Shown one piece after another: positions 1,219 to 64,000 of a DNA stretch of 64,000 nucleotides. Both the position numbers and the translations under genes were made by a program. Source of the stretch: Mobula birostris (lineage: Eukaryota); NCBI RefSeq assembly GCF_030028105.1, contig NC_092399.1, positions 15,830,881 to 15,894,880 on the forward strand, given 5' to 3'. The stretch's first letter is position 1, and each line of letters opens with the position of its first letter. The notes beneath the pieces were generated by a model, which saw only the letters and a program-made list of their open reading frames with translations, ran no database searches and was not told where the DNA came from.

Positions 1219-1398
1219 AAGTTGCTGGTGAACGCAGCAGGCCAAGCAGCATCTGTAGGAAGAGGTCAGTCCTGACGAAGGGTCTCGGCCTGAAACGTCG
1301 ACTGCACCTCTTCCTACAGATGCTGCTTGGCCTGCTGCATTCACCAGCAACTTTGATGTGTGTTGCTTGAATTTCCAGCATCTGCGGAATTCCTGTTG
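1219..1398 (+). mobile_element. Fold-back mini-Penelope insertion carrying a hammerhead motif
   Basis: About 48-bp inverted arms around the ribozyme motif; 13-bp TSD tcaacttgtatta (1206-1218 and 1399-1411). Confidence 0.85.
1267..1304 (+). ncRNA. Minimal type I hammerhead ribozyme motif (intact core)
   Basis: cagtc-CTGACGA-agg(gtctcgg)cct-GAAA-C-G-TC^gactg; stem I cagtc/gactg; loop-less stem III (ACGT palindrome). Confidence 0.8.
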
Positions 1399-1521
1399 TC
1401 AACTTGTATTAGTTAGGTTAATATTTTTTGTATATTTGGTTCGTAAAACCACCACACTTTGTCAAAAAAACCCTATGCAAGAACAAACAAATGCAATGAC
1501 AACACAAAATTGAGATGATTT

Positions 1522-1924
1522 CAAACATGAGAAAGTTTGCAGATGCTGGAAATCCAAAGCAACACACGCAAAACACTGGAGGAACTCAGCAGGTCAAGCA
1601 GCATCTATGGAAATGAATAATTCCTCAGGTTTGAGAAGGAAGGAGGAAGATGCCAGAATATAAAGGTGGGGGGGAGGGGAAAGAGGCTAGCTGTAAGGTG
1701 ATTGGTGAAGCCAGATGGGTGGGAAAGGTCAAGGGCTGGAGAGGAAGGAATCTGATAGGAGAGGAGAGTGGACTATAGAAGAAAGGGAAGGAGGGGGCCT
1801 GAGGGAAGTAATGGGTAGGTGAGAAGTGAAAGGTCAGTGGGGAATAGAGGAGGGTACACCTACAGGATTAAATTGCTCACTGGAAGATGCCATCAGGTTG
1901 GAGGGTACCTAGCTGAAATGGAAA
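1522..1924 (-). mobile_element. Penelope-like pLTR fragment
   Basis: Same gcagatgctggaaatcc / purine-rich / gccatcaggttggag layout as the 52-53 kb element; TSD gagatgattt. Confidence 0.7.
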
Positions 1925-2919
1925 GAGATGATTTAAATTTTTTGATGCATTCTATTTTCCTCTGTTACTATCCACTTGTTTGATTCATACAGGAATTCAC
2001 ATATGAATGGAGGCTGAGGTGATTGACCTAAACCTATTGAACTATAGAAGAATGAAAGCTGATCTAATACACCTATGATTCTGAGGGGGAATTGATGGGC
2101 TGGATACTAAGTGGATGTTTCCCTTTACTGAGATAACTAGAAGTAGAGAGCATCACTTCAGATTAAAGGATCCTTCATTTCAGCTGAAAATGATGAGTTT
2201 CTTTTCTCAGAGGGGTCTGAATCTTTTGCAGTCTATACCCCAGATCAATGGAGACAGTCATCGAATACTTTAAGGCCAAATTTAACAAGCCATTTAAAAT
2301 AGAGTGGAGTCAAGTGGTATGCAAAGAGGCTGGCTAAATATATTAGTGAACTGGTAAATATATCTACATTGTACCTAATCTGTAAACACTTAGAAATAAA
2401 TATCACAAGCAGTCAAATGTATAAATTTTAAATCTTGGTCCAGTGACATACCGTTCATTGAATAGCGGGACAGGCAGCGCCAACTAGCCGGCTCTTGATC
2501 CCAATGTGTTAAATAAACCTGCCAATAAGAAAATAATGAAGGCCCTTCCAGCTTTTAAGTTACTAGTTAGCCCAGGTTAATTGACCATACACAGCTGTAT
2601 AGAGTGGAATGCAACTTCTCAACACAAAAGGGGTTTGGACACCAACGCGTTGGGAGGCAGGGTATTGCTGTCGCTGGTACAATCACCAGAACAACACCCA
2701 GCACACTAAAAGAGGGCGCAACTGCAGGACCGCTGGTGAATTTGGCGCATTCGCAGCCTTCAGGAGGAATGACAATCCAGGACCGCGCTGAATGGGACCA
2801 AGGAGGAGGGTCGCTTCTGTCAGTCCTCGTTCCCTCCAAAGCACACTGCATTAGCTGACCCTGTCAGGTGAAAATTAGGCCAGTCGCCCTGCTTAACATC
2901 AATGAACAGAACGGAAACC

Positions 2920-3290
2920 ATCAACGGACGCCGGCCACTTGTCATTCCATTGACGTGGACCGGGGGGGGGGATTTGGCGCACGGAACCCTGGGAACTGTA
3001 GTTCCCGTTACACCGTTTAACCCCGGCAACTAATCTGGAGGAAACTCCAACTCCCAAATATAGAATTATGCGCACGCGCGTAGACCTTCAACCAGTGTAA
3101 CCTAACTTGGCAGCTCAATTATCCCGCCCACTATCTTGTTTTCCATTCGCTACGGTACTAGACCTGGCTTCTAAGTGGTGTGTGCGAATGTCAATCAATA
3201 TGTACGCCGCGATTTCCGGTGTAAAATTAGGTTGGCAGGACGTGTGGGCATCGGTTTGATCTCTGCCTTGACTAAAAGGTGGAAAGGTAA
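2920..3290. promoter_or_regulatory. Probable ZBTB8B promoter and non-coding first exon
   Basis: Locally CpG-rich. TGACGT at 2951, E2F-like TTTGGCGC at 2973, ZNF143/THAP11-type GGGAACTGTAGT at 2991 plus a variant ACTCCAACTCCCA at 3044, NRF1-like TGCGCACGCG at 3069, candidate donor AAG|GTAAAT at 3287. Confidence 0.6.
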
Positions 3291-4538
3291 ATACAGAAAG
3301 AAATAGGTAATTCTGGGTTTTAACGATTTTATGATATTACAATTGAGTTTTGAGGGATGTCCGTTAAACAGAATTAGACATTGTAACCCTAAGCTCTGAC
3401 CTCTTGGTGTATTCATTGGGAACTGTGTTGCAGCAGAACAGTTATAACCACTGAAATGGTTCAACGTCTAATTCTTGGCACAATTTATTTTTGTGTCTGT
3501 TATTTTATAGGAAGTTTATTTTTTTTGAAGGTTTCTTCTTGGCTTAAAAGCAATCTGTGACGTCATAAAAAAGAGCCTTGAACCAATTATTTTTTTGGGA
3601 AAAAAATTAGTCTATCAGAACAGAACCTGAAACAATAGCCTAGTTGAGCTTCCTGAGTACTGCTAATGAATAGTATTCAAAATTTAGACCTTCATTTGCT
3701 AAACAGTATTCAGCTATTGTTAATGCCTGATATTTTCTATCAGCTTTTAATGTGAAACTGGGGTAAAGAGTTAATGGAACCCAATAGCAACTTAAAAAAA
3801 AACAATGCAGCTTTTCTTTATGATGGCAATTCATTGCCTGAAAGCATTTTTTATGCAAGATGTGTATTTATGAATGAAAATATTACTATTTAAAATAGTG
3901 GTGCTACCTAATGTTATGAGTCACTTTGTTTTTGTCAGCAATGCATACTGCGGCTACATGATAACAATCAGTTTTTTAAAAAAATCGGTTTGCTCAAATA
4001 TTTGATGCAATTTAAATCTTTTATCTGGAGTTACAGGAGTTGATTTATTTTACTCTTACCTAAAGTGCAGGTCAAGCACTTTAAAATGAAAGTTTCTCTG
4101 GTGCTAATTGGGCCTTTGTGGGTCTCTTGACCTGAATTATAACTTAAACGTTGCAGTTTCCTTCAGAGTGTTTAGGTTTTATTTAGCTTCTAGTAAGTAG
4201 TTAGTGAACTGTCACTCTAATGCAGGAGCTGTATAGAAAGCTGAAGTGGAATGCTCTCTTTTATAATGGTTTAAGTGCATTTTTGCGGCTAGATAAATAA
4301 ACTTTGTTTACCTCCTGGTTATTTGATATCTAAGGGCTTTTCCACCATTGGTAAATTATTCTGGGGGAAAAAAAAGGAGAGCTTGGTCTGTGATTTATTG
4401 TTGACACCAAGGGCCAAGTGGGTAATTCTTTCTGTTGCTGCTTTATTGTGGAACCCACTGTTTATTTTTGAAAGCTCTTGACTTTTGTTTCTTCTACAGG
4501 TAAAGAAATACCTTTTGACAAAGTCCTGCTCATGAAAG

Positions 4539-5472
4539 ATGGAGATCACATCGTATTATACTAAACTTCTGGGAGAATTAAATGAGCAGCGTAAGCAGGA
4601 CTTCTTCTGTGACTGCAGCATAATTGTGGAGGGAAGAATTTTCAAAGCTCACCGGAACATTCTATTTGCTAACAGCGGCTACTTCAGGGCCTTGTTAATT
4701 CACTATATCCACGATAGTGGACGCCCTAGCACAGCCTCGTTGGACATTGTCACATCTGAGGCCTTTTCAATTATTCTGGACTTCCTTTATTCTGGAAAGT
4801 TGAACCTTTGCAGTAAAAATGTTATTGAAGTAATGTCGGCTGCTAGTTATCTACAGATGACGGATGTGGTCAGCTTTTGCAAGTTGTATATTAGATCTTC
4901 TCTTGACATCTGTGTGAAAGATGAAAAGGATGATGATTGCAGTCATGTGGAGAATGGAAATAATATAAATGCCTTTGGAGATGCCGTGTCCTTCTGTCGG
5001 AATCAATGTCCAAACCCTGTTCCGACAGTTCAACAACAGAAAGAGGCAAGCCCGGAGAATAATAAAGGACTTAACTGGAATGAATGCAGTACTTATCATC
5101 CCATAGATCTTGCACAAAAGGATCAAGATAATCTTTCTCCAGAGAAAGTGCATCCTCCATCGCTACCCAAGCTTCCAGAACCGAAGGTTGAATTCGACGA
5201 GGATGAAGTGGGATCGGTTGAGCGGTTCCGACAGTTTACACCGTCTGCCACAGATCAGACTGAGGAGCGGCTGCAGTCTGCCCCAGCCATGGAGATAGCT
5301 TATGAGAATTACCAGATGAAACAATTCCTGGAAGTTTTATTGAGGACAGGAAATGTCCAACGGAAAGATGACATCATGCAGCACTTTTCCCGTGGGGGGC
5401 GTCCGGAGGATGGAGGGGGCACCTTCTCGAATATGATGGATGTCCAGAGCGATTGGTATGGGGAAGATGCAG
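4539..5472 (+). CDS. ZBTB8B: ZBTB8B first coding exon (BTB/POZ domain plus linker)
   Basis: [52 protein letters not shown] is a ZBTB8B-type BTB domain. Acceptor ttcttctacAG at 4498-4499; donor AG|GTGAGA after 5472 (phase 1). Confidence 0.95.
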
Positions 5473-6200
5473 GTGAGATCACTGCAACAGCATAACATAA
5501 CGCAGAACTTTCGTTAGAAACATTGCATCCTTTGATGCAATGCATAACTATCTTAGACAAATACTAAGATTCAGATTGGAAATTCTCCACAAAAAATCTG
5601 GGAGTAATTGACTATTTCGATAGCACCTACACCTTAGTGAAACTAATGTAATACTAAGATAAATGCTGGTATATTTCAAAACATCAGCCATGTTAGTTTT
5701 GGATTGTATAAGTGGCACCAGTTTTTCTTTGTGTGACAATCCACATATTCAAATTCAGGGTCTCGGCCTGCAACATTGATTGTTTCTTCCTCTCCATAGA
5801 TGCTGCCTAATCTGTTGAGTTCCTCCAGCATTCTGTGTTCGTAGCATAGGTTTTGCGTCACAATTTAAATTCCTCAGTGTCATCAAGGTTACTCTCTTGT
5901 GATGGTGTATGAGAGTGTCTGGTGCTTTGGGCGAATCAGTATTTCCCCACAAAATGTTATCTGGGCACCAGCCCACAAATTGAATACATTCTCAGCATTT
6001 CCCCAAATCAACAAGTGACAGCGTGACTACGATGGATGGAGAGTGGGTGGAGTTTTTTTCTGTTCTGCCAGAAGCAGTAATAGATTGTGCTGCCCCTTAA
6101 GTCTATCAGGCCATTCATTAAAATTATGGCTGGGTTTGTACCTCATCCACTTTGCCTCTATCCTTAATGTCTGAAGATCTATTGAATTTGGTTTTGACTA

Positions 6201-6977
6201 TACAATTGATTCTTGTTCATTGGGACACATGGGAGCAGTACATTTTGGCCCAATTAAGCAGTAGCCAAAGTTTCATAGAAATAGTTAGAAAGGTATTAAA
6301 AAAAAAAAGTGAGTGAACAACAAATTATGTATTTAAATGAACACCCCCAATAGTATGATAATATTATAAAACTGTTTATTAATTCTTCTTATCGACAGAG
6401 GAATTTATCCATGTTACATTCTTTTGACTGTAAATGAACCAAATCAACGCAGATATTGGACTGCCTTCATACAATGCTGTTGATGGTTGCATCCTCCTAA
6501 CACTCACTTTCATTTTAACATTCAAGATCTTACTTTCAAAGTAGGAAAGGTGCAGAATTCGATACCTTGAAATTTTTTTGTAGTTTCTAAGTTTTTGAAG
6601 TAGTGAAATCATTTCATTTTCACTCCCAGCTGTTTCTGGCATCTCCAAGCTGGAATGTTTGAAACTGCAGTGAACAAAACAGTTCTGAATTGTCTTGCTG
6701 CTTATTTCTTCCCAACTCAGTGACAAAACACATGCAACTAATGCTTTTTAAAAACAGTTTGCTGGAAGCATGGTGTTGTGGCTAATGGCTACAAAGTGCA
6801 TGTGACTAATGCTAGCTGGAAACTTTTCAGCAAGTTTCCTACCCCATAAACAGCGTGTCCCAAATAAACGAAGAGAACCCCAGCTATTTTCTTGATTAGT
6901 TTTCGTTCTTTAAGAGTGGTCTCAAATAAGTGGCTGCCCCGATTAACTCGTGGCCCAATTATCTGGAATCTACTGCA
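6201..6977 (-). mobile_element. Tigger/pogo-like DNA transposon remnant
   Basis: Imperfect TIRs (tacaattgattc.. and ..gaatctactgca); remnant LSWEEISSKTIQNCFVHCSF resembles the pogo/Tigger C-terminal W..TI.NCF motif. Confidence 0.65.
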
Positions 6978-8024
6978 CCTAAAGTACACCCACAACCCTC
7001 TGGAGTAGAAAATCACAAAGATTTAAAACTCTAAATTGAACACGTATTCCAGATGGGATGCAATTTGGAACTCAGTTCAGCTGTCATTCCTTGGTAATTC
7101 AAACTTGAAATAAAAGCCAAGATTCCACTAAACTTTATTTTTTAAAAGAACATAGTATGTTTTTGTTTCTTCTAAACGTGGGCTCCCAATTCTGATCGTT
7201 CATTTCTAACTACCAGCTGTTTAATAAATATTCCAAGCGATGCCAAATTCAAGTGATCTTGTATTCTCTCACATTGACCTCCATCTGCGACAATGTTAAG
7301 CTCTTCACTGAACCTCCAAAGTTCTTTGCAACTTTGTACTTTGCTCTACACTACATTATTCTCCAACAAACCCGGTGCCATTGATAATCGTAGATTTTCT
7401 AATATCTGTTCCTTCAGCTCGGTCACTTACTAATATAATGAAAAGCTGTAGCCCTTTCCAGATTCTGAGAACACTGTCAGTCACGTTTTGCCAATTTAAA
7501 AGTTCACTGGTTATCCCTACTCGGATTTGATTGAAAAATTGGAGGTCATTCAGCCCATCACAGCTGGTTCCTAAAACAGTTTCCTATCTAAAGCAATAGG
7601 TAGTACAATCCCACACTTCCATTTTCACCCCTCCTCCTCCACTCCAACCACCATTTCCTTTGTATGGGACAATACTGTCTGGAAGTCGAATTCACCATAT
7701 TATCAAAGTATGTATGCAGAATGCAGCTCTGAGCTTCGTCTTCTCCCGATAGGCACGAAACAAGAAAACTCATGGAAGTCATTGAAAGAAAAGACATCAA
7801 CCCCCCCCCCCCAACACACACAGACAGACAGATACAGACAAAGGTAAAACAAAAACTCTCAAAATCCAAATCCCCTACCCCCACCCTCACAAAAAAATGA
7901 ACAGATCGCCCACACAGAAAGTGACAACTAGAACATCAAACCCCAAGTCCCAAAACCCTCCTTCACAAAAAACGATCATATCGCCCACACGAGAAAAAAC
8001 TAACAACATCAAACCCCCAACCCC

Positions 8025-8051
8025 CTCTCTCTCTCTCTCTCTCTCTCTCTC
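8025..8051 (+). repeat. (CT)n microsatellite inside a low-complexity C/A-rich repeat (about 7780-8150)
   Basis: Read directly; aacatcaaacccc recurs in the surrounding sequence. Confidence 0.9.
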
Positions 8052-8822
8052 AAAAAACTAACAATGCCCACATGGGGGGGGGGGGAAAGAAAACACCAAC
8101 AGGAACATCAAACCCCAAATGCCCAACCCCTGACTTGCACAAAAAAAACTAACGTATGGCCCACTGGTAAACAGTCTTGTATCAAATATTAATACAATCC
8201 CAAGAAGGTTCCTTGGCCACTGTTAATTGTCACCTGTTTGTAACCAGCTATCAATTATAATAGCAACAATTCTCATTTTTTAGTTAGTTTAACAAAATAT
8301 CATCTGAACATGATACGACAAAGGGATATGTTAATGCAGATGACCAGAGGTTGATCAAAGTTGGTTATAAAGAACATCTTCAAGAGGTGATGACAGAGCA
8401 ATTAGTTTCAGGACTATTCAAGAGACCAGAAAATAGATGACGTATATTGATAGTACCGGGGCTGATTACAGCAAGAGAAGGGAGTGAGGCTGAGGAGGAA
8501 TTTATAAATCAAGATGAGAATTACATTCATAGACGCAAATATATATTGGTTATGATTATAATAAGCTTGAATTTTCCCAATTTAAAAAAAACCTAAGTAA
8601 TACACAGAAAACATTGGAGGAACTCAGCAGATCAGGCAACATCTATGGAAAAAAAGTAAACAGTCAATGTTTTGAGCCAAAACACTTCATCAGGAGTAAA
8701 AAAATACTAAACCTCAATATAGAAATGCTATTGTAATTTATAATCTCACACATCTTAGTGTGGTATTTTGAAACATTTCAGATCTTTTCATACACTGACA
8801 TTTTTTTAAATCTTCTAAGGTA

Positions 8823-10444
8823 CATTGGTATGCAAATGTTTGGGCACCCCTAGTCAAAATTTCTGTTGCTGTGAATAGCTAAATCAGTAAAAGATGACCT
8901 GATTTCCAAAAAGCATAAAGTTAAAGATGACACATTTCTTTAATATTTTAAGCAAGATTACTTTTTTTTATTTCCATCTTTTACAATTTCAAAATAACAA
9001 AAAAGGAAAAGGGCCCGAAGCAAATGTTTGGGCACCCTGCATGGTCAGTACTTAGTAACAGCTCCTTTGGCAAGTATCACAGTTTGTAAATGGTTTCTGT
9101 AGCCAGCTAAGAGTCTTTCAATTCTTGTTTGGGGGATTTTGGCCCATTCTTCCTTGCGAAAGGCTTCTAGTTTTGTGAGATTCTTGGGCTGTTTTGCATG
9201 CACTGCTCTTTTGAGGTCTATCCACAAATTTTCGATGATGTTTAGACCAGGGGATTGCGAGGGCCATGACAAAACCTTCAGCTTGCACTTCTTGAGGTAG
9301 TCCATTGTGGGTTTTGAGGTGTGTTTAGGATCATTATCCTGTTGCAGAAGCCATCCTCTATTTTTCTTCAGCTTTCTTATAGACGGTGTGATGTTTGCTT
9401 CCAGAATTTGCTGGTATTTAATCGAATTCATTTCTTCCCTCTACCAGTGAAATGTTCCCCGTGCCACTGACTGCAACACAAGTCTAAAGCATGATCGATC
9501 CACCCCCGTGCTTAACAGTTGGAGAGGTGTTCTTTTCATGAAATTCTGCACCCTTTTCCAAATATACCTTTGCTCATCGTGGCCAATAAGTTCTATTTTA
9601 ACTTAATCAGTCCACAGGACTTGTTTCCAAAATACATCAGGCTTGTTTAGATGTTCCTTTGCAAACTTTTGACGCTGAAGTTTGTGTTGAGGGCGCAGGA
9701 AAGATTTTCTTCTGATGACTCTTCCATGAAGGTCATATTTGTGTAGGTGTTGCTGCACAGTAGAACAGGGCACCACCACTCCAGAGTCTGCTAAATCTTT
9801 CTGAAGGTCTTTTGTAGTCAAACGGGGTTTTGATTTGCCTGTCTACCAATCCTATGAGCAGTTCTCTCGGAAAGTTTTCTTGGTCTTCCAGACCTCAACT
9901 TGACCTCCACCGTTCCTGTTAACTGCCATTTCTTAATGACATTATGAACTGAGGAAACAGCTACCTGAAAATGCTTTGCTATCTTCCTATAGCCTTCTCC
10001 TGCTTTGTGGGCATCATTTATTTTAATTTTCAGAGTGCTAGGCAGCTACTTAGAGGAGCCCATGGCTGCTGATAGTTGGGACAAGATTTGAGGAGTCAGG
10101 TATTTATAAAGCTTTGAAATTTGCATCACCTGGCCTTTCCTAACGATGACTGTGAACAAGCCATAGCCCTAACAAGCTAATTAAGGTCTGAGATCTTGGT
10201 AAAAGTTATCTGAGAGCTCAAATCTCTTGGGGTGCCCAAACCTTTGCATGGTGCTCCTTTCCTCTTTTTCCCCACTTTAAAATTGTACAAAACAAAAATA
10301 ATACACTAATCTTGCTTAAAATGTTGAAAAGAATGTTTCATCTTTAATTTTATGACTTTTGGAGATCAGTTCATCTTCTACTCACTTAACTATTCACAGT
10401 AACAGAAATTTTGACCGGGGTACCCAAACATTTGCTTGCCACTG
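8823..10444 (-). mobile_element. Full-length decayed Tc1/mariner DNA transposon (IR/DR type)
   Basis: About 210-bp TIRs, each with two direct repeats (gcaaatgtttgggcaccc at 8832 and 9020; complements at about 10229 and 10417); TA on both flanks. Frameshifted transposase about 10063-9045 with GRPRK, WTD, QQDNDPKH and SPGLNIIENLW motifs. Confidence 0.93.
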
Positions 10445-11714
10445 TAGGCATGAAAATAAGTGCAGTAGTGTAGTAAAGTCAAAAATTACTTTAAAAAGAA
10501 GTAAATTTCCATTAAAAGAAATGGGTTTTGATGGAAGTGTTTAGATTGCACCTGTTTGTATGCCCCTTAACTTGAAAGTCTTCCAAGTCTTTCATTCAGG
10601 TAATTTTTTTTTAATGATGCCAAACTAATGGTAGATTGCATGTGTCTTTCCAAAGTAGAAAAGGAACTAATTGTAGACCTTGGTCAGACAACAAGCATAT
10701 TACTGCACAGTTGAAGCCAGAATAACTGGGAAGACTGAAAAGCTGGATATAGTAGATGTTTGTGGAGTAAGTTATGACTTTAGTTCTATTGGTGAACGTA
10801 CCACAGACATGCAATGTTGCCTTTTGAACCTACCTTCCCACTGCCCATTGTACCGATGGCGATGAGGGCAGCAATGAAGGTCCTCCATTGCTGGCAGTGT
10901 TCATTATGTCAGTCGTGCAGGTTCCAGGTGGAGACTGAGGAACACAGCCGCACCCAGGTGTGGAGGATTCTTCATTGCTGTTTCTGTAACAGTTTTGGTT
11001 TACTAGTCAGGATTGTTAGCCCTGAGCTGAACCCTCAAACCTGGAAGACCAGTGAACCACTCTTAGTCTGATCTCTACCCTTTGACCTGTTTGGCATGAG
11101 TGACCCTACCATGAGCTGAAGCATAAAGTCCTGACTGCATGTCTCAAAATCCTATGACAAGATTGTGGTACTCTTGGAAGAGCCTTTTGAAGTGGTTTCT
11201 TAAAATTATGGAATTTAATTCATGTTAAGATTATGTCTGTGATCAGCAAGGACTATTTCTTTTTAAAGATCAAGTAGTGTAAATTGATTCAACAATTTAT
11301 ACCAATTTAAAATGTATGATCTATTTGATAAAGAAAATCTAATTAATGAAGTGCATATAATTCTTTAGGATGGATTAAACGTTTCCTTGTCTGATCATGC
11401 AGGCTGGTTTATCTGACAGTGGTAGTGAGATTGCAACAATCTGACTTGGAACCCCTGAGTTATTCAGTAACTCCTGTGGTAAAATTATATGCAATTTGAT
11501 GGAGGACAGCACTGATTCTCAAATAGGATCTATTTTGTTTTATAGTTGGTTGTTGAGGTTCATATCTAACTGATAACCACTTGACAATACAAAACAATGG
11601 ATGTCTTTGGAGTGATAACCAAGAGTTTGAAAAGGTTTCTCACTGATGCCATTTGATGATAGAAATGGACTCTGTTTTACAAGTCCTGACTGTAAATTGG
11701 TTGGAATCTTTTTA

Positions 11715-11943
11715 CAAACAAAGGAAAATCTGCAGATGCTGGAAATCCAAGCAGCACACACAAAATGCTGGAGGAACTGAGCAGGCCAGGCAGCATCTAC
11801 AGAAGAAAAGTACAGTCGACATTTCAGGCTGAGATCCTTCAACAGGATTCAGTCCTGCCGAAGGGTCTCGGGCACGAAATGTCGACTATACTTTTTACCT
11901 TAGAGGTTGCCTGGCCTGCTGAGTTCATCCAGCATCCTGTGTG
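11715..11943. mobile_element. Fold-back mini-Penelope with two oppositely oriented degenerate hammerheads
   Basis: Inverted arms; motifs at 11813-11849 (-) and 11850-11887 (+); TSD-like gttggaatc(t/c)tttta. Confidence 0.75.
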
Positions 11944-12161
11944 TTGGAATCCTTTTAAACTCTGTGATGTCATGAATATTTTAAACATAAGTGGGTTCTG
12001 AAATGCAGTGTCAATGGCAAAGAATCTATGAGATATAAATAGTCATTCAATCATTTTGTAATCTCACCTGTGGGCTACTGTCACATTTTCAGTTTGTATC
12101 TGGCTGGGAGAACTAGATTTGATCAGGTAGTTGATGCCAACCAAAATGAATTGACTCTGTG

Positions 12162-12720
12162 CACTCAGTAGCTACTTTTAGGTACACCTGTTTGTTAATG
12201 CGAATATCCAATCAGCCAGTTGTGTGGCAGCAACTCAATGCAAAAAAAAAAACATGCAGGTATGGTCAAGAGGCTCAGTTGTTGTTCAGATCAAACATTA
12301 GAATGGGGAAGAAATGTGATTGAAGTGACTTTGACAATGGATGTTTGTTGGTGCCAGACAGGGTGGTTTGAGTATCTCAGAAAATGTTGATCTCCTGGGA
12401 TTTTCATGCACTATAGGCTCCGGAGTTTACAGAGAATGGTGTTTTAAAAAAAATCCAGTGAGCTGTAGTTGTGTGGGCAAAAATACCTTGTTCATGAGAG
12501 AGGTCGAAGGAGAATGACCAGACTGGTTCAAGCTGACCAGAAAGAGACAGTAACTCAAATAACCATGTGTTATATACAGTGGTGTGCGTAAGAGCATCTT
12601 TAAATGCACAACATATTGAATGTTGAAGTGGATGGATTACTGCAACAGAAGACCACGAACATACACTCAGTGGCCACACTTTAGATACCTCCTGTACCTA
12701 ATGAAGTGATCACTGAGTGT
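12162..12720 (+). mobile_element. Non-autonomous Tc1-derived element
   Basis: Termini cactcagt...actgagtg. Internal decayed Tc1 N-terminal helix-turn-helix sequence (atggggaagaaatgtgat...ctcctgggattttca). Confidence 0.7.
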
Positions 12721-13122
12721 ATTTCTGTTTTATGGTTAATATAGTACCCAGATGCTTCAATAATATTGTATTAAGTTGTTCCATAATAACCCTGGCCATG
12801 AATTCCATAGTCACCTGTGTCTTTAATGCTTTTCTTGCTCTTTGCTCTAAATCTTTTGTTTAATCTCGTACCAAATCATCACTGTCTAATATTAAAGTAA
12901 CAGAGTAGAGTCTGGATTATGGGGATGAGCAGAGAGTTTTGAAAATTAACTTTTACAAGCATCAAGAAAGCAGATGCAGTTTCTCCTTGATCAGTGGCAT
13001 TGAACGTGCAATATACTAAATCGTGTGCTATATTCCACTTCGAATCCCGGGGCAAAATCCTAGGTGTTGTTTAGTGCTGCTAATCCAAGGCTGAATTTTT
13101 AAGTGAGTACCTTTGGGGAATG

Positions 13123-13274
13123 CAAACAACAGGAATTCTGCAGATGCTGGAAATTCAAGCAACACACATCAAAGTTGCTGGTGAATGTAGCAGGCCAGGC
13201 AGCATCTGTAGGAAGAGGTGCAGTCGACGTTTCAGGTTGAGACCCTTCGTCAGGACTAACTGAAGGCAGAGTGG
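13123..13274 (-). mobile_element. Short Penelope pLTR insertion with an intact hammerhead (13221-13258)
   Basis: 11-bp TSD tttggggaatg; reverse complement reads tagtcCTGACGAagg..cctGAAACGTCgactg. Confidence 0.82.
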
Positions 13275-14794
13275 TTTGGGGAATGGTCTACATTATCCAC
13301 CCTTCGTAATATTGACTATTTTATCAAATCACTTCATAATGTCCTCTGATCAAATGATAACAACACTAGTTCATTTTTGTCTTACACCAGAGGCTTTCCA
13401 TCAGGCCTATGCCAGGGTTTCTGCTCCGTGGGAGTGTTTCCTCTCCACCCTACCACATTAATACATCCTTCATTTTTTTCCCTCCCTTCTGAACTCATTG
13501 AACTTCCCATTGTGCTATTTGCATTAATTGCTTCACAAACTTGTGTTTTATGTGCTTACCACTGTTCCTCCCCCCCCCCCCCCTTCCTTTGATTCAGGCT
13601 GTATGCTAGTTCATCTGTTCAACCCTTAGATTAGTAGCATTAAATGCTATGTGTAGACGCATCTGGGCATGATACATTGTTCCTGGTATTTCTAAGATAA
13701 ATTGCAACATACACAAGCTTCCAACTTGCCACTAAACCCAGTTGGAAATTATCCATGTTGTATTTAATGTTCTGTGCATATGCATTCCTAAAACTTTTTT
13801 CCCTTCCTTATAGCCCACTTTTCTCTCCTCAAGACCATTTTGTTAAAACTAAAGTAGTATATAACAAATATGAGGTGGTATACATCTGCCATTTATTTTA
13901 CAACTCAACCATCTTGGCAGTATCTGCTTACAAATTCCTTTGCTCTTTGGTGTTGTTCAGGTTGTCTGTTATCCTAATATGATAGGCAAGTTCGATCATA
14001 GTTTCATTTAGGTGTAAATTACTGAAGTATATGAGCTATGGTTAATCACTTCTGTCTCATATGCAAAACCACCCTTCACTTCAACTTTCTGTATCCCCTC
14101 TCCCTATCAGTTTTCAATCCAGTTTGCTACAGTTCCCTTAATTTCAGTAATATTCTGTTTGGGACTTTGACAAATACTTTTAGAAGATTTTCCTTATATT
14201 TATTTCCCCCCCCATCTATAGTATCATTTCCTTGAAGGACCATTTCATGATTGTAAGCATTAATTTTGCTTTCAGAAATTCAGCTGCTTCTAATTTTTTT
14301 TCCCTTAAATAAGCAAATTCATCTTTAATGAAAGATTTCAAAAATGTTTCCTTCTGCAGCTGTTAAAATACGTGGGCTATAATTACATCATATGCCTTTC
14401 TGAAAAAGGATGTCACATTGGCAATAATTTGGTTCTCTTATAGCTGCAAATGATGTAAATATAATTGCTACTTAAAGATTTTTCCCATTTGCAGCTTCTG
14501 AAGCTAAGGTCATTTTTCATGCATTTCTATGAATCAGTGACCCAGACTGGGATTTATTGGGTGCATAATTTCACTGTTAGACTTCAAAATTCTGAAGTAG
14601 ATAATAGCAGACTGCTGTGTACAAATTGAGGACACTTAATAGAGTATTGGAAAAGCACAGTGAGCTGAACGACTTCTGTGCCACATCACTGCTCACTTTG
14701 AGTCAGAGAATGATGCAGTATCAAAAAAAAAAAAAGCAGTATCAACTAAATGGTCTAATTTATAGGGAATTCCAGATCAGGAAACTGGGGAATT

Positions 14795-39945: not shown

Positions 39946-39949
39946 CCTA

Positions 39950-51803: not shown

Positions 51804-52055
51804 AAAGAGAGATTCATATACTTTTAAAGAATGGATTTCCACTCATTTAAAGCAATTCAGATGTATATAGCTTTCAAAGGAAGTTGTGAAATTGCTTTGT
51901 TTCAGCATAGCTGTTTGCAAGCTTCTGCATTACAATCACTTGAATTTGAAGTACATTTAAGGAATTTATGAACTAATTGTTTTACAGAGTACCCTTAAAA
52001 TTGTGTGCAAGTAGCATGAAACAAGTTTTTAATGACACTAAAGGCTATTATTACT

Positions 52056-53897
52056 CAAACAACAGGAATTCTGCAGATGCTGGAAATTCAAGCAACACAC
52101 ATAAAAGTTGCTGGTGAATGCAGCAGGCCAGGCAGCATCTCTAGGAAGAGGTGCAGTCGACGTTTCAGGCCGAGACCCTTCGTCAGGACTAACTGAAGGA
52201 AGAGTGAGTAAGGGATTTGAAAGTTGGAGGGGGAGGGGGAGATCCAAAATGATGGGAGAAGACAGGAGGGGGAGGGATGGAGCCAAGAGCTGGGCAGGTG
52301 ATAGGCAGAAGGGATACAAGAGGATCATGGGACAGGAGGGGATGGCGTTTTTGCAAGAGACAGGGTGAGAAGAGGAATAGTCCAGATAGCTATCAATCTA
52401 TTACAATCTATGTTCCGTGCCTATTCTGGTATCTGTCCCCCACTTTTCCTTCGCTACATCGACGACTGCATTGGCGCTGCTTCCTGCACGCATGCAGAGC
52501 TCGTTGACTTTATTAACTTTGCCTCCAACTTTCACCCTGCCCTCAAGATTACCTGGTCCATTTCTGACACCTCCCTCCCCTTTCTAGATCTTTCTGTCTC
52601 TGTCTCTGGAGACAGCTTATCCACTGATGTCTACTATAAACCTACTGACTCTCACAGCTATTGGGACTATTCCTCTTCTTACCCTGTCTCTTGCAAAAAC
52701 GCTATCCCCTTCTCGCAATTCCTCCGTCTCCGCCGCATCTGCTCTCAGGATGAGGCTTTTCATTCTAGGACGAGGGAGATGTCTTTTTTTAAAGAAAGGG
52801 GCTTCCCTTCCCCCACTATCCTCTGCTCTTAAACGCATCTCCCCCATTTCACGTACATCTGCTCTCATTCCATCCTCCCGCCACCCCACTAGGAATAGGG
52901 TTCCCCTGGTCCTCACCTACCACCCCACCAGCCTCCGGGTCCAACATATTATTCTCCGTAACTTCCGCCACCTCCAACGGGATCCCACCACTAAGCACAT
53001 CTTTCCCTCCCCCCACTCTCTGCATTCCGCAGGGATCGCTCCCTGCGCGACTCCCTTGTCCATTCATCCCCCCCATCCCTCCCCACTGATCTTCCTCCTG
53101 GCACTTATCCGTGTAAGTGGAACAAGTGCTACACATGCCCTTACACTTCCTCCCTTACCACCATTCAAGGCCCCAAACAGTCCTTCCAGGTGAGGCAACA
53201 CTTCACCTGTGAGTCGGCTGGGGTGATGTACTGCGTCCGGTGCTCCCGATGTGGCCTATATATTGGCGAGACCCGACGCAGACTGGGAGACCGCTTTGCT
53301 GAACACCTACGCTCTGTCCGCCAGAGAAAGCAGGATCTCCCAGTGGCCGCACATTTTAATTCCACATCCCATTCCCATTCTGACATGTCTATCCACGGCC
53401 TCCTCTACTGTAAAGGTGAAGCCACACTCAGGTTGGAGGAACAACACCTTATATTCCGTCTGGGTAGCCTCCAACCTGATGGCATGAACATCGACTTCTC
53501 TAACTTCCGCTAATGCCCCACCTCCCCCTCGTACCCCATCTGTTACTTATTTTTATATACACATTCTTTCTCTCACTCTCCTTTTTCTCCCCCTGAATAT
53601 ACCCCCTGCCCATCCTCTGGGTCCCCCCCGCCCCCTTGTCTTTCTTCCCGGACCTCCTGTCCCATGATCCTCTCGTATCCCCTTTTGTCTATCACCTGTC
53701 CAGCTCTTGGCTCTATCCCTCCCCCTCCTGACTTCTCCTATCATTTTGGATCTCCCCCTCCCCCTCCTACTTTCAAATCCCTTACTCACTCTTCCTTCAG
53801 TTAGTCCTGACGAAGGGTCTCGACCTGAAACGTCGACTGCACCTCTTCCTAGAGATGCTGCCTGGCCTGCTGCGTTCACCAGCAACTTTTATGTGTG
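52056..53897 (+). mobile_element. Penelope-like element (Neptune-type), 5'-truncated, with inverted pseudo-LTR
   Basis: RT motif LRYIDDCIG, thumb-region motifs (LPFLD, YYKPTD, IPFSQFLRLRRICS) and GIY-YIG (VMYCVRCSRCGLYIGETRRRLGDRFAEH). pLTR 53514-53897 is mirrored by an inverted copy at 52056-52340; 14-bp TSD aggctattattact. Confidence 0.92.
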
Positions 53898-54714: not shown

Positions 54715-55640
54715 TTAGAACATAGAATAGTACAGCACAGTACAGGCCCTTTGGCCCACAATGTTGTGCTGACCCTCAAACCCTACCTCCCATATAAGCC
54801 CCCACCTTAAATTCCTCCATATACCTGTCTAGTAGTCTGTTAAACTTCACTAGTGTATCTGCCTCCACCACTGACTCAGGCAGTGCATTCCACGCACCAA
54901 CCACTCTCTGAGTAAAAAACCTTCCTCTAATAACCCCCTTGAACTTCCCACCCCTTACCTTAAAGCCATGTCCTCTTGTATTGAGCAGTGTTGCCCTGGG
55001 GAAGAGGCACTGGCTATCCACTCTATCTATTCCTCTTATTATCTTGTACACCTCTATCATGTCTCCTCTCATCCTCCTTCTCTCCAAAGAGTAAAGCCCT
55101 AGCTCCCTTAATCTCTGATCATAATGCATACTTTCTAAACCAGGCAGCATCCTGGTAAATCTCCTCTGTACCCTTTCCAATGCTTCCACATCCTTCCTAT
55201 AGTGAGGCGACCAGAACTGGACACAGTACTCCAAGTGTGGCCTAATCAGAGTTTTATAGAGCTGCATCATTACATTGCGACTCTTAAACTCTATCCCTCG
55301 ACTTATGAAAGCTAACACCCCATAAGCTTTCTTAACTACCCTATCCACCTGTGAGGCAACTTTCAGGGATCTGTGGACATGTATCCCCAGATCCCTCTGC
55401 TCCTCCACATTAGCAAGTATCCTGCCATTTACTTTGTACTCTGCCTTGGCGTTTTGTCTTTCCAAAGTGTACCACCTCACACTTCTCCGGGTTGAACTCC
55501 ATCTGCCACTTCTCAGTCCACTTCTGCATCCTATCAATGTCTCTCTGCAATCTTCGACAATCCTCTACACTATCTACAACACCACCAACCTTTGTGTCAT
55601 TTGTAATCTTGCCAACCCACCCTCCTACCCCCACATCCAG
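54715..55640 (-). mobile_element. CR1 LINE 3' fragment (young)
   Basis: Long open reading frame with EQRDLG, LYKTLIRPHLEYCVQFWSP, LERVQRRFTRM, TRGH and FFTQRVV.AWNALP motifs. Confidence 0.92.
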
Positions 55641-57399
55641 GTCATCCAGAACCAGTCTTCAGGAATTAAAACCTGTACACAATTTAACTTCCAACTGATG
55701 CTTTGTGGCTAGTGAAACCACTCTTTATGTAGGACATTCTTTGCGCCATTGAAACTACATAGGGAAACACAATTGATGATGTTTTATGCTGTTAGAACAT
55801 TATTAAAGCTGTATCCCTGCTAGCTAATACATAGTTCAGGACTGGTTTGTTTTGCTACTCAACCTTCTGGTTCGTCTTGCTTTTGTTTCAAGGAGACTTT
55901 GAATGCATTCTTATTTTTTTTTTTGAATTGTTGCCTGGTAATCTCTTCTCCCACAGAATTTAGGATAATTTGTTTCTTTTGGTGATGAAGTTTTTGAGGA
56001 TATTGGGGGTGCAGGGGTTAATGACCTTCAAGGACTTTGTACTCTTTCGGCATAAGTTGCATCCTTTTTCGCTTCGCGTGCTTGATTGTATTTCTGCAGT
56101 TGTGAGGTTGTGAAATCGCTAAACTACTTCTCTGTTTTAATCAAGGACAAAACTGTCTGATTCTGTAAAGTAACAGATGTGTGTGTGTCTGATTTAAAAA
56201 CTCCAAGGCTGATTACTCCTTTCTCTGCCCCTCTGTACCTTGTAGTCCCACAAGCTTTGTACAAAGAACCGGAAAACAATTCCATATATGGATAATGATG
56301 GTCTCTTTAAACTGTACAAATGTTGCTGTATGTAACCTGCTGATAGAGGTTCGACACGAGCCCCCAGAGGGAGAGGAAATCTGTCCCTCTGTTGTGTGTG
56401 CCTCTGAACTTCTCGCCGGCTGAGTTCAAAGAAATGAACTGGTGAAAAGGATAAAGTAAAGAACTGTTTGTGTTGTGGTTATTGGTCCGGCAAATTTAAG
56501 TTTACATTGGGAACCAGGTAGAAGGCATGCAGTGGACTGAAATGGCTATCATTAGGGTCTTAATACTGGGGAAGCAACTGCGATAGCTCTAAAAATTATG
56601 TACATATACTGAAGTTGCCTTGCAAAAATAGATGAGAATATTTCAAAACATAAATGATTTGAAAAGATTATTGTGATATTTCAGCTTAAAATTTCCCAGC
56701 CTTTGGCACACTTTGTAATGCTTAGAAATTTATTTAAAAATTGCTGATTTCTTGTCTGCGAGAATTCTTTAAATTCATTATGCATAGTATCATTAAGACT
56801 GAAGAACTCTTGAAATGACATCAATTAGTATTTGCAATGATCTTTTGTTATATTTTCTTTTCTCTATGCTAGGAAGAAAGCATCGTCATTGCTTGCAAAT
56901 TCTTGCACAGAGCTCATTTTGCAGAAGCCACCAATGAGGAATTTTGAAATTGGTGAAACTGGCATGACATATCATTTTGGGTTTTGAGTCCTGATGAAGG
57001 TTTTCGGCCCAAAACGTCAACTGTTTATTCGTCTTCATCGGTGCTGCCTGACCTGCTGAGCTCCTCCAGCCTTGTGTGCGCACTTGGGTGATTTAGTTTG
57101 GATTCAAGATTGTTTAATGTTATTTCCAGTACACAAGTGTGAAGGAGAATGACATAACTGCTACTCCGATTCTATGCAGCACAAAAAAACACATGAAATT
57201 GAACACAATAATAAAATACTATATATATGATAGCTTATATACAATGCACATATACATAGATTGCTTGATTGTATGTCCATAAAGTGATGTTGCCAAGGAA
57301 TGTCTGTATGTAAGGTGACTTACTGGAAGTACAGGAAAAGTGGTGGTTGAGGGTGTGGAAGAGTGAGTTAGTGCGCGCAGGTGTTGATCATCTTTACTA

Positions 57400-57467
57400 T
57401 TTGGCGAAAGTAACCAGTGACGTAACAGCGCTTCCACTTCCTGCTTTATTTGGTAAGGGTGAAGAGC
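57400..57467 (+). promoter_or_regulatory. FUCA1 proximal promoter / 5'UTR
   Basis: CRE/ATF-like TGACGTAA (57418-57425) and ETS-like ACTTCCTG (57436-57443) just upstream of the ATG, in CpG-rich sequence that extends into intron 1. Confidence 0.5.
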
Positions 57468-57823
57468 ATGGAGTGGAAGTGTTTCTTGAGTTTTATTTTC
57501 CTTACTGTGGGTTTAGGTACCGGAGAACCTTCCGTTCGCCGTTACCAACCGAATTGGAAGAGCCTTGACAGCAGGCCTTTACCCGGCTGGTACGACGAGA
57601 GCAAATTTGGGATTTTCATCCACTGGGGAGTATTTTCTGTGCCTAGTTTCGGGAGCGAATGGTTCTGGTGGAATTGGAAAGGGAGGCACTTACGTGAGTA
57701 TGCGGAGTTTATGACAAAGAACTACCCACCGGGATTCGAATACAGCGAGTTCGCTCCAGAATTTACAGCTAGCTTCTTTAATCCAGATCAATGGGCGGAA
57801 CTGTTCGAGGAATCCGGAGCTAG
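57468..57823 (+). CDS. FUCA1: Tissue alpha-L-fucosidase (GH29) exon 1
   Basis: Signal-peptide-like [19 protein letters not shown], then [44 protein letters not shown]; donor AG|GTACAG (phase 2). Confidence 0.93.
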
Positions 57824-58146
57824 GTACAGTAAAAATACGGTCAAACGTGAGCATTCATTGAGTGATTGAGGTGTTTATTTGCAAAAGGCAGATATTCAAA
57901 GTACTTTTTATCATCAAACTATGTATACATTATACAGCCGTGCGATTCGTCTCCTTACAGGCATCTACAAAACAGGAAACCCTTAAAAACCGACAAACAC
58001 CCCATGCGCAGAGAGAAAAAAGCCATAATAACGGAGTTATCAATATAAAGGCGACTTTGCTGCGCTTGAATCTGCTGGTGGAGTTTGGCGGGTGTAATTT
58101 ATTTCATTTGGCCCGGGAATACGGTCATTGCTGTTTTGCATTATAA

Positions 58147-58412: not shown

Positions 58413-59976
58413 CTGGATTAGTGTACACGGAGCGATGCGTTGAACCAAAGTCGGCCCTGCAGACGCGCTCCTCCACCCCCAGGACTTTGTCGGACTTGAC
58501 ACCGACTGTTCGCGGCACCAGTTCCCTCTCCAAAAGACAGAAAGGGGGCGGCGCCGTCCCCTTTCCACGGGACTTGGGCCTCACGGCAGGTCCAAGTTAG
58601 ACCCTGTTGTGTTGTGTAACAGCGACCTATTAGATGGCGCATATATCATGACTCGACGCTTCATGCTCTGAAGGTGCCTTTATTTCACATTCTCCTTTCC
58701 ATGCTCCTTGATATCTCCTGTTGTTCTGTCCCAGACTGATGACAACATCACCGTAGCTGACTAGTGTCAAACTTACCATTTAACTACATGACAGAACCCA
58801 ACCTCTGATGCTGTCTGTGGATTCTGAGGTTCTCCCTATGATCCAAAGATGTGCAGATTAGTACATCTACAACTTAAAATGCGCTACTACTAGTGTTTCA
58901 GTGGGTGGTGGGATCTGGGTGAGTTAAGACAAGAATTTGGGGATAAAAGGGATGATTGTAGATGCCTGCTTAATGGCTGATTCAGTCTGCTTTGAAGGAT
59001 CTGATTTGGTGTTGTGTGACAGTATATTATAAATGACATCCAAGGTGGAACTTGAGTGAGTTCCGTGGGTGATTAGTAGACAATATTTATTGGTGGTGGA
59101 TGGGGCAGTACTCCCAGAGGATTCTTGGTTATGTGGCATTATTGCCATCTGAACCCAAAGATAAGGCTACATTTGTCTCTTCATAATCTTGGTATTTTAT
59201 ACATTATGAAGTCTATCATTAATGTTGCATCTTGATGGATAAAGTTTCCATTTAATTAATGTACTTAAACACTTTCCTCACTCCAAAGATAATTTGCAGT
59301 GGATTGTAGATAAATAGATTGCAGTGCTTCAGATATGATGATTGGCACTTACTGGTGAGGACTGGCTATGATGAGATTCTGCCTTTCATACCACTCTTTG
59401 TAAGACAAGCTGAGTAACTCGTAATCCAATATGGTAGCTTATTTATCTTAGTTTTATTGTTTCCAGATTTGTTCTGCTATTTCTGAATTCTACTTGTCCA
59501 TCCCTAAATACGAGTGAGAGGGAGATCTTTACAGGGTTTATAAATCAAACATCTCAGTTTAATTTATAGACACAGGAGACTGTGCAGAAGCATGAAGGCA
59601 CACACTCGGCGGTTCAGGAACAGCTTCTTCCCCTCTGCCATCCGATTTCTGAATGGACATTGAACCCATGAATATTGCCTCGCTTTTTAAAAGCAACGCA
59701 TACAAAATGCTGGAGGAACTCTCTAGGTCGGGAGTCTCGGTCTGAAATGTCGACTGCTCGTAGATGCTGCCTGACCAGCTGAGTTCCATCAGCATTTTGT
59801 GTATGTTATTCTAATTGACAGAACTCTTTTAAAATGCCAAGAACACAACTTGAGTTGTAGGCATTGGTCTGTGTTTTTTTTTCCTGAAATAAAGCTGATG
59901 CTTGGATATATTCAAAGAGCACTTTACAGTTGCATTTGATTGTAGTTAACTGTTTTCCTGTGGTATGTAATCTCAG

Positions 59977-60929: not shown

Positions 60930-61500
60930 GTCTGAGGCCTGTCGGTCAGAGTTTTCCATGGATGTTGCATCCCAGCTGTCTAGATACACAAGCCTAGGTA
61001 GTGTGATTGGAGAGCAAGATGTTGCCCATGTAGCAAGCTCCCTCTCTCCACGCAACTGATGAACCCAAAGGAACAGCAGAGACCGATACAGTTTGGTATC
61101 AGAAGTGACACAGGAGTTGCCAGTCAGCACTGAACTCAATGTAGGACCTCCTTGGGGACCACAGCTCTGGGTTTTTCCTCAGGTTTTACCCCTGAAGCCT
61201 TCCCCATGAGTGGGTATAGGCACAAGGCAGCGGAGGTTTGAGATCAGAGTTTTCCTTCTCCCAGGCGAGCTACCAATCATGGCTGACGAGCCCCATCTGC
61301 CGGAAGCGGTTGGTTTTAAGGGGGCAGTAACCCGCCTTTGCCCCTTCTCGTGTCAGTAGAAACAGTTCTGCCAGGCTTAGAAGCTAAGCCACACATGAAG
61401 CGCAGAAGCTGGACTGGTTGTCAGAGGCTATTTGAACCACACACCATTGGGAGCGTTTAATAGGTAGTGGGAGCTTGTCCCCATTACCACCCCTGGCAAG
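60930..61500 (-). mobile_element. RTE-related non-autonomous repeat
   Basis: 3' part matches about 360-520 in reverse orientation. Confidence 0.55.
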
Positions 61501-62908
61501 AACAATAATCCACTGTCTGTTTGGAACTCTTAATCATGTAAATTCCATCACGTGCACTGACAAATTTAGTATATTGTACTATTAAAAAGTAAATTAAGGG
61601 TACTTATTACCCATTAAGCCGCTGGTGTTTGGGGCAGCAATGAAGGTCTTCCCTCTCTGTCTGTCCTTGGCTATTTTGGTCTTGGTATTGGTGGTGTTCA
61701 AGGCTTCCTTCATTGTGCCGGTAGCTTCCTCTCTGTTTTCGCTACTGTCAGCTTGCAAGCCCAGGGATGAGACTGAGGAATACCGTCGTGCTCAGATGTA
61801 GAAGGATTCTTCATTGCTGTTTCCGTGACAGTTTTGTTAGATCAGCATTATTAGCCCTGAGTTGAACCCCCGAACCGGGAGGACCGGTGGACCGCTCTTA
61901 GTCTGGCCTCTACCCTTTGACCTGTTCAGCATGGGTGACCCTACCAAGAGCCAAAGCATCAGCTCCTGACTCCAGCAAACGGAGCTCTCCAGGTCACTGA
62001 GGCACAGAAGCCTCCAAACCACAAATCAGTTTTGGTCGTCTTGGAGGAAAGTAAGATATTGGATTATTAATTTGTAATATTTCTCTCCGCTGGAATAACT
62101 GACAGTCCAGTATCAACATAGCCCTGATACTCCCTGGTTAATGTGGTTTTACTGCAGGGTTTGAGAGCTCTGCTATATTTCCACTCTGCCCTCTAGGAAT
62201 CTATGTATGATTTCAATGTGATCTGTGCCAATTCAGTGGGGTTAGACTGGGGGTCTGTAACATCTACATAGAAATAGATTGAAAACCAGTGCCTTTGTAT
62301 TCATGAATTCCAGGTGATCTTTCTTTGCTGTTTCCTAACACACAGCCCCTAAAAAATAATTGATATGAGTTTTGTCGTTGAGGATTTGTGGGAAAAATAA
62401 ACTGTTAAATCCATTGAAACATTTTGAGGCTGTTCCTATCAGAATAGATAAATGATGCAGCTTATTTTGACGTTTAGAAGGTCTTTGATACGATGCAGAA
62501 AAAGCATTCAGGATTGGGGCTTGTCAAATTCATACAGCAAATCCATTCTGTTAATCAAAGGCTAAAATGTGCTGTGGGAAGTTAATGATTTTTTTGCTTA
62601 AGGACTGACCCTGAAGCTTATCCCTTGAAATGCATTGTTGAAGATAATTATTTGGAAATTTCTAAAGTAAGTTCACTTCACATTTATTTTTATTTCAGAA
62701 ATAAGTTTTCTTTAAAATACATACAGAATGCATCATATAAACAGTATGTCTTTCCATTCATATGAAAGATGTGAATACTATTTGCAAAGCACCAATGCCA
62801 CTTGTAGGCTCCTTGAGCTTTTTAACTACATATTAAAGTTATGCAAACGAAGTGGGCTGTCCAACTGAATTTAATATTAGTTTCAAACTTGATCTTCTGT
62901 TGCAACAG

Positions 62909-63046
62909 GCAGTTACATTATGGAGTGTACCATTCTCTCTTCGAGTGGTTTAACCCCCTCTACTTGTCTGATCAGCGAAACAAATTCAAGACCCAGAAAT
63001 TTGTTATGGAAAAAACATTACCAGAACTGTACGATCTGGTCTTAAG
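62909..63046 (+). CDS. FUCA1: FUCA1 exon 3 (gene continues beyond the window)
   Basis: 138 nt; [43 protein letters not shown]. Acceptor caacAG, donor AG|GTAATG. Confidence 0.93.
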
Positions 63047-63239
63047 GTAATGTAATATAACAGTTTTAATGATAGAGCCTTAAAATATCTGTAAATGTAT
63101 CTAATCACTAGTTAAAACATCACTAGTTAACTGGTTCTGTGACTTACAGAATCACTGTCAGGGATTCTTTTAAAACTCCTATTCTCAGTGTTATTATTTT
63201 TTTAATTTGCCCAGTTCTGTCAAACTAGGCTTTGTCTAG

Positions 63240-64000
63240 GCAACACACACAAAATGTTGGAGAAACCCAGCAGGCCAAGTAGCATCTATGGAAAAGAGTA
63301 TAGAGTCGACATTTCGGGCTGATTCTCTTCATCGGGACTGGATAAAAAGGAGAGATCAGAGTAAGAAGGTGGGGGGAGGGGAGGAAGAAGTACAAGGTGG
63401 TAGGTGAAACCGGGGGAGGGGGTGAAGTAAAGAGTTGGGAAGTTGATTGGTGAAAGAGATAGAGGGCTGGAAAAGGGGAAATCTGTTGAGAGAGAGTAGA
63501 AGACCATGGAAGAAAGGGAAGGGGGAGGAGCACCAGAGGGAGGTGATGGGTAGGTAAGGAGATAAGGTGAGAGAGGGGAATGGTGATGGTGGGGTGGGAA
63601 GGGCAATTACCGGAAGCTTGAGAAATTGATGCTCATCCCATCAGGTTGAAGGCTACCCGGACAAAATATTAGACTCTGCCCCTCCAACCTGAAGGTGGAC
63701 CCATTGCAGCAGTAGAGGAGGTGACAGACCAACATGTTGGAACAGGAGTGGTAAGCAGAATTGAAGTGGGTGGCCATCGGGAGATCCTGCTTGTTGTGGC
63801 AGACGGAGCGTAGATGCTCGGCGAAGCAGTCCCCCGGTCCACGTTGGGTCCCACTGACGCGCAGAAGGCCACACTGGGAGCAACAGATACAGTAGATGCT
63901 CCAACAGACCCACAGGTGAAGTGTCGCCTGACCTGGAAGGACTGTTAAGGGCCCTGAATAGGAGTGAGGGAGGAGGTGTGGGGGCAGTGTGGCACTTGTT
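63240..64000 (-). mobile_element. Penelope-like element (pLTR plus GIY-YIG), runs off the window end
   Basis: Reverse complement aligns by eye to about 53120-53897; degenerate hammerhead at 63304-63340. Confidence 0.85.

Follow-up and report, generated by a model that had tools for sequence, protein, structure and literature searches.

Small hammerhead variants reportedly cleave as dimers, as stated in the title of work by Lunse et al. Minimal hammerhead ribozymes (min-HHRs) of Penelope-like elements (PLEs) have been reported in fish elements of the Xena, Poseidon and Neptune types, and in an assay with the Schistosoma min-HHR the monomer did not cleave, while the dimer showed low cleavage (PMC4209133). 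Cleavage by the motif of an Anolis element requires the protein of that element (PMC11167929), and the role of PLE hammerheads has been called unclear (PMC8557442). The present analysis concerns a window of 64,000 nt from Mobula birostris (NC_092399.1, 15,830,881-15,894,880; genome size 4.0 Gb), in which hammerhead motifs are dispersed. Very probably, these motifs are minimal type I hammerheads in the pseudo-long terminal repeat (pLTR) of one very abundant Neptune-like Penelope element, and the copies are 5'-truncated or inverted, likely inert insertions. The import is small as it stands, because the motif, the host element and the dimer model have all been published. The family is very young and very large, and with a whole genome and RNA-end data its many junctions could serve to map the start of the RNA and any cleavage.

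Hammerhead motifs of the window and their architecture

A sequence-only reading of the window had listed about a dozen motifs. It was verified that all 12 listed coordinates hold a hammerhead motif on the strand claimed, five with an intact and seven with a mutated core, but the tally was too low, as additional decayed cores were found at 5745, 8661, 39528 and 59719. The intact copies at 1267(+), 13221(-), 14959(-), 52154(-) and 53802(+) were unchanged at all 13 positions that were scored in the core and in stem III, and CUGANGA, GAAA and UH were complete in 5 of the 16 window cores that were scored position by position (changes are given in Table 1). When the copy at 53802-53839 was compared with the window, 17 positions matched at least 22 of 38 bases and 14 matched at least 25, while the best match in 20 base-shuffled windows did not exceed 24 of 38. 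As 14 of the 17 lie above the shuffled maximum, the matches are beyond chance. A profile search yielded 21 pieces in the window and none in a decoy of reversed gene spans; coreless or partial ends were located near 1576, 38000 and 51030. An Rfam scan of the window gave no match to a hammerhead family at E values up to 10, and its microRNA matches at 1234-1338 and 14925-15029 turned out to be palindromic insertions.

Stem III is indeed the loopless palindrome ACGU that had been described (A15.1, 15.2, 16.2, U16.1). A stem II is also present, but its pairing is better placed one base along: an unpaired A is followed by a stem of 4 bp, GGGU/RCCY, that is closed by the loop CUCG, and in the redrawn stem the partner of G10.1 is the C or U at 11.1. 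For a comparison of subfamilies 356 copies were collected, of which 203 were classed as young and 120 as old, while 33 were excluded. The unpaired A after A9 was found in 99% of the young copies. The pair 10.1-11.1 was G-C in 67 of the 120 old copies; among the 203 young copies it was G-U in 157 and G-C in 39. In all columns of the core and of stem III, young and old copies agreed in their commonest letter; differences were confined to N7, 11.1 (G-C replaced by G-U) and the outermost stem I pair (C-G replaced by U-G), the pairing being retained as G-U. This comparison of sequences suggests that the ribozyme positions are constrained in the active lineage. Between the commonest pairs of helices I and II in the two subfamilies, one-sided G-U changes were the only kind observed, and no two-sided compensatory change was seen. 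Positions 15.2/16.2 were C/G in 165/203 young and 51/120 old copies, and the other pairs were mostly CA or TG, which are products of CpG decay.

The monomer was predicted to fold into a rod, in which GACG of the core is paired with the palindrome side CGUC (-11.2 kcal/mol; z = -1.2, which is not unusual). Nearest-neighbour calculations gave -11.9 kcal/mol for the strand-swapped dimer versus -22.4 kcal/mol for two monomer rods, and because the swapped dimer is less stable, bare dimers are predicted to be unfavourable. The predicted rod and the unfavourable dimer fit the published low activity of min-HHRs. Dependence on dimers is a known trait of the minimal hammerhead class, and for this family it would be carried over by analogy with the Schistosoma assay.

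Host element and ends of its copies

The motif had been proposed to be Penelope-associated, and it indeed sits in the pLTR of an element with reverse transcriptase (RT) and GIY-YIG endonuclease, in agreement with the min-HHRs of PMC4209133. In the window, the region 52053-53897 consists of an inverted pLTR, a truncated and frameshifted RT/GIY-YIG frame and a second pLTR; its part 52403-53897 has 95% identity to a natural long copy (L045) and matches residues 587-958 of the 958-amino acid frame P0001. In P0001 a match to RVT_1 (E 4e-05) is followed by one to GIY-YIG (E 0.005), both under the curated Pfam cut-offs, and three other long frames had an RVT_1 match only. Pfam gave no match for the three short frames that the element has in the window, but did for the long natural ones. 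The translation of P0001 contains a CX4CXXC linker between RT and endonuclease and a DKG motif. A CX2-5CxxC linker marks Neptune and Nematis elements (PMC8557442), and by its motifs the element appears to be a Neptune-like endonuclease-positive PLE, for which both Neptune and Nematis are possible.

A first-look genome search with the RT fragment of the window element yielded 44,081 candidates, and some of the 150 that were scored lie in frames of 880-958 residues. Among 20 loci chosen for long frames or paired matches, same-strand motif pairs were found 3,514 nt (L038), 3,728 nt (L045) and 3,754 nt (L049) apart, and L050 has three motifs at 3,027 nt. In these four loci the motifs are in both pLTRs and on the same strand as the open reading frame (ORF). 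The motif lies within the pLTR and precedes the ORF, the ATG of which is at +138 from the predicted cut, the reference point for all signed positions below. Genome-wide, the exact pattern of an intact core had 38,249 matches (reversed control, 0), an anchor downstream of the cut had 69,291, and an ORF-start pattern had 250; thus, from the anchor and ORF-start counts, most copies are short ends. Insertions in the form of partial tandems and of inversions, with a tail on one side, were also observed.

Three side observations concern the element. In both subfamilies the sequence immediately before stem I (for example, window 53775-53806) has a pyrimidine tract followed by YAG, resembling a splice acceptor; in Drosophila virilis an intron of Penelope ends at helix I (PMC4209133). 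The locus L047 contains, at 6538-6905, four tandem units of 67 nt, all of which have a hammerhead core, next to a pair in head-to-head orientation, and this mini array is retrozyme-like. Nine of 30 ORF-start copies (L253-L282) have their ends between +258 and +274, where reverse transcription may have another internal start region.

The 3' ends of the copies cluster at +65 to +69 and at +100 to +105. To determine the 5' ends of young copies, the anchor downstream of the cut was used (the first 30 places plus 40 stretches, most of the 100 listed), which resulted in 86 rows with 83 distinct junctions. Eighteen of the 83 were at -34 to -30, another 18 at -29 to +21, and 11 at -100 to -35, some of the latter being alignment breaks in C-runs. 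Not a single one of the 83 was within 2 nt of the cut, and the cut site was thus ruled out as the main class of 5' ends. Genome-wide, the base preceding A(-32) was not the expected one in 1,709 copies, compared with 544 copies one base upstream. The pile-up at the front edge of the motif, together with its absence at the cut, therefore indicates that reverse transcription usually crossed an uncut motif, and judging from these junctions the templates were likely uncut for most insertions. The boundary at -32 could reflect either the start of the RNA or a stop imposed by structure.

The window copies at 1267 and 14959 belong to the front-edge class and are palindromic single insertions joined at stem I. 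It is unlikely that such short hairpins form a separate mobile family; their junctions and target duplications vary from copy to copy. No shared upstream sequence of the kind left by a spliced exon joined at the YAG was present among the short copies inspected, and the 30 ORF-start loci had no fixed start at -32 or 0. Fourteen of the latter align over at least 988 nt downstream, and their starts are scattered, beyond -521 to +105.

By analogy with the Anolis element, reverse transcription would start inside the RNA at two points (+65-69 and +100-105) and would then read through the uncut ribozyme; therefore, nearly each insertion, even a short one, would have one motif. As expected from its class, a single motif could not close stem III and would form an inactive rod. 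Judged likewise from the class, cutting would require a long element RNA that carries two motifs, and probably also the protein of the element. The active lineage would keep the motif, and scattered copies would decay, largely at CpG and irrespective of the host strand. The copies are likely inert where they stand.

Intron strands and alternative explanations

It had also been proposed that intact cores on the sense strand of introns are selected against. The underlying observation was correct for 13221 and 14959, which are antisense to the first of two BTB-zinc-finger genes (Table 1), but these two alone lie between its coding exons. The copy at 1267 precedes both the first coding exon and a CpG-rich stretch (2501-3000), and 52154 and 53802 are between the last coding exon of the second gene and a fucosidase exon. 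Two of two antisense copies arise by chance one time in four. The strands were counted in 21 gene spans with 1,173,900 bases (15 myosin, 3 RYDR_ITPR and 3 spectrin-repeat spans), the strand of which was set by Pfam exon matches on one strand; nested genes are not accounted for in these counts. The spans contained 249 matches, 120 sense and 129 antisense. Intact cores, with a stem I of at least 3 bp, were sense in 9 and antisense in 12 cases (p = 0.66), and mutated cores in 75 and 85 cases (intact versus mutated, Fisher p = 0.82). The sense:antisense ratios were similarly even for coreless copies (36:32), young copies (26:26) and a control with a LINE-like (long interspersed nuclear element-like) family, presumably CR1-like (30:37). 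A first round with 18 spans and a stem I of at least 4 bp had yielded 6 sense and 7 antisense intact cores. Taken together, the proposed selection was unsupported, and 1.17 Mb gave no support for a purging of intact cores from the sense strand of introns.

It is very improbable that intact sense copies, acting as dimers, cleave host pre-mRNAs and are cleared from introns by selection. The antisense orientation of both intact copies in the first gene would agree with it, and the copies are so dense that same-strand pairs exist; furthermore, tandem retrozymes have been reported to be under-represented in Xenopus introns, strand not being considered (10.64898/2026.07.22.740005). However, in addition to the even counts, the intact cores without an opposite-strand partner within 3 kb were sense in four and antisense in two cases, and two bare motifs paired as a dimer are predicted to be less stable than two monomer rods. 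Another explanation starts from the boundary at -32. The first base of stem I might be where the element RNA begins, and a capped leader of 32 nt might be clipped by the ribozyme from a minority of the RNAs, which would be a switch between translated and untranslated (decapped) RNA. The boundary at A(-32) is sharp, and simple insertions begin right after the target duplication, at -31 in L184 and at -29 in L003. The initiator pattern is YYANWYY, and the contexts TTAGTCC (young) and CCAGTCC (old) agree with it. If such a switch existed, uncut RNA would be translated and copied, leading to the pile-up at -32, and protein-assisted or dimer clipping would lead to rare GUC joints, which were twofold in excess at the cut site. 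Both the RNA start and cleavage in vivo would then be recorded in tens of thousands of junctions in the genome, the latter not being shown for a Penelope ribozyme in the portions of the literature compared. A polymerase stopping after stem I would yield the same boundary, though, and a cap-type extra G was not seen (-33: G 29, A 25, C 46; -34: G 22, A 20, C 58; first 100 rows each, tallied by eye). The scattered starts of the 14 long ORF-start copies and the nature of most cut-site joints (see below) also argue against the switch, and overall it appears unlikely.

The motif might also have ceased to cut even in the active element and serve a structural role, as part of a promoter, as a splice acceptor or as a protein-binding site. 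In the Anolis element, insertion in vitro was not affected by core mutations and RNA ends at the cut were not detected (PMC11167929), related elements spread without the motif (PMC8557442), and in both subfamilies the pyrimidine tract with its YAG lies before stem I or overlaps with it. But the Anolis motif does cut when the protein is present, and between the subfamilies catalytic positions are all kept, while tolerated ones vary, and a purely structural role is therefore regarded as rather doubtful. The reading favoured here, inert insertions copied from mostly uncut templates, has to face several opposing points. Joints exactly at the cut numbered 87, compared with 43 at a control 2 nt away, and of the 30 ORF-start copies one has its start precisely there; therefore, some cutting in vivo is possible. 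Of 12 cut-site joints inspected, one was a double mutant, one was joined to flanking DNA, and ten were inversion joints, which are explicable by shared GAC or GTC triplets. The energies leave out tertiary contacts, Mg2+ and protein, and the clade was assigned from motifs rather than from a tree. With 21 intact cores the 95% interval of the sense share is 0.22-0.66, so that a moderate bias is still compatible, and one gene span has two intact sense cores 11.7 kb apart.

Features of the window and comparison with known systems

The two BTB-zinc-finger genes lie in tandem and are presumably ZBTB8B, as named in the sequence-only reading, and ZBTB8A. A second inverted-repeat element, unrelated to the one described above, is likely another Penelope family; its frame 49599-50018 (-) had no match in Pfam.

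Table 1. Coordinates of hammerhead-bearing insertions, genes and other elements in the window
Feature	Position	Strand	Remarks
Palindromic stub insertion	1215..1399	+	sense copy with intact core 1267-1304, fused at stem I to an inverted tail arm; target-site duplication of 13 bp; predicted single long hairpin (z = -17)
First BTB + C2H2 zinc-finger gene	4536..29332	+	coding exons 4536, 17456, 29129
Old decayed copy	5745..5831	+	additional to the sequence-only list
Old decayed copy	8615..8698	-	G12 and 16.2 changed; additional to the sequence-only list
DDE_3 transposase remnant	9045..9440	-	
Dispersed repeat family (D4, D9, D11, D18)	10840..11208, 16719..16870, 18511..18891, 61606..62043		
Old head-to-head pair	11715..11946	both	mutated cores 11813-11850 (-; A6 and 15.2) and 11850-11887 (+; A6 and indel)
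Young 5'-truncated pLTR end, long tail	13119..13273	-	intact core 13221-13258; antisense, in intron of first BTB-zinc-finger gene
SNORD24-like match	14445..14493	+	weak, below gathering score; intronic
Palindromic stub insertion	14856..15056	-	core 14959-14996 intact, GUU triplet (H17 = U); 14-bp target-site duplication; core antisense, same intron as 13119..13273
Endonuclease frame end + pLTR	21920..22405	-	core 21982-22019, G8>A
pLTR	37545..37954	-	core 37607-37644, G12>A
Old decayed copy	39439..39565	-	additional to the sequence-only list
Second BTB + C2H2 zinc-finger gene	41955..45677	+	coding exons 41955, 44074, 45351
Old decayed copy	45158..45243	+	core altered; sense, in intron of second BTB-zinc-finger gene
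Second inverted-repeat element	49186..49335 / 50500..50649	- / +	decayed hammerhead-like cores 49181-49205 and 50630-50660
Inverted 5' pLTR arm of largest insertion	52053..52339	-	intact core 52154-52191; long tail
5'-truncated Neptune-like Penelope body + 3' pLTR	52403..53897	+	body 52404-53510 (RT end, cysteine linker, GIY-YIG; frameshifted); intact core 53802-53839, predicted cut after 53834
LINE-like frame end	54776..55564	-	presumably CR1-like; served as strand control
Old copy	56986..57070	+	G12>A; profile and core scoring
Alpha-L-fucosidase exon	57426..57869	+	downstream of both zinc-finger genes
Old decayed copy	59719..59795	+	additional to the sequence-only list
Old-subfamily copy	63242..64000	-	mutated core 63303-63340 (U4 and 15.2), pLTR, endonuclease remnant 63610-63986; continues past window edge

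In the literature searched, from which the supplements of PMC4209133 were outside, neither a description of this family nor a test of orientation bias in introns was found. Judged by its core, its stem III, the unpaired base after A9, the pair 10.1-11.1 and its place in the pLTRs, the motif has the features of a min-HHR. With the min-HHRs of metazoan PLEs (Cervera and de la Pena 2014, PMC4209133) it shares type I, the loopless helix III with palindromic 15.2-16.2, a helix I of 4-5 bp, an unpaired base between 9 and 10.1, and G10.1-C11.1, as well as the location in both pLTRs and the occurrence mostly as dispersed single copies with some close opposite-strand pairs. In contrast, helix II has 4 bp here and 7-8 bp in the Schistosoma family, and the young subfamily mostly has U at 11.1, unlike the C of min-HHRs. 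The 38,249 exact copies compare with about 4,000 in coelacanth and about 9,000 in Xenopus (PMC4209133).

The non-LTR retrozymes (Li et al., 10.64898/2026.07.22.740005) are alike in having a type I hammerhead from PLE pLTRs, but they are tandem arrays, whereas the window copies are dispersed or head-to-head; as no hammerhead array was found among the window copies, identity with tandem retrozymes was rejected. The Neptune clade (Craig et al. 2021, PMC8557442) has in common with the present element the RT, the CX2-5CxxC linker and the C-terminal GIY-YIG domain, and also partial tandems, an inverted 5'-truncated copy and a tail of 30-40 bp at one end. PAc, a Poseidon element of Anolis carolinensis (Frangieh et al. 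2024, PMC11167929), differs in its clade and in an ORF that starts inside the hammerhead, while here the ATG lies 138 nt past the cut. It is alike in that two internal starts of reverse transcription define the tail, which for the Mobula element was read from the copy ends, in that both target strands are extended, and in that uncut RNA is the main template.

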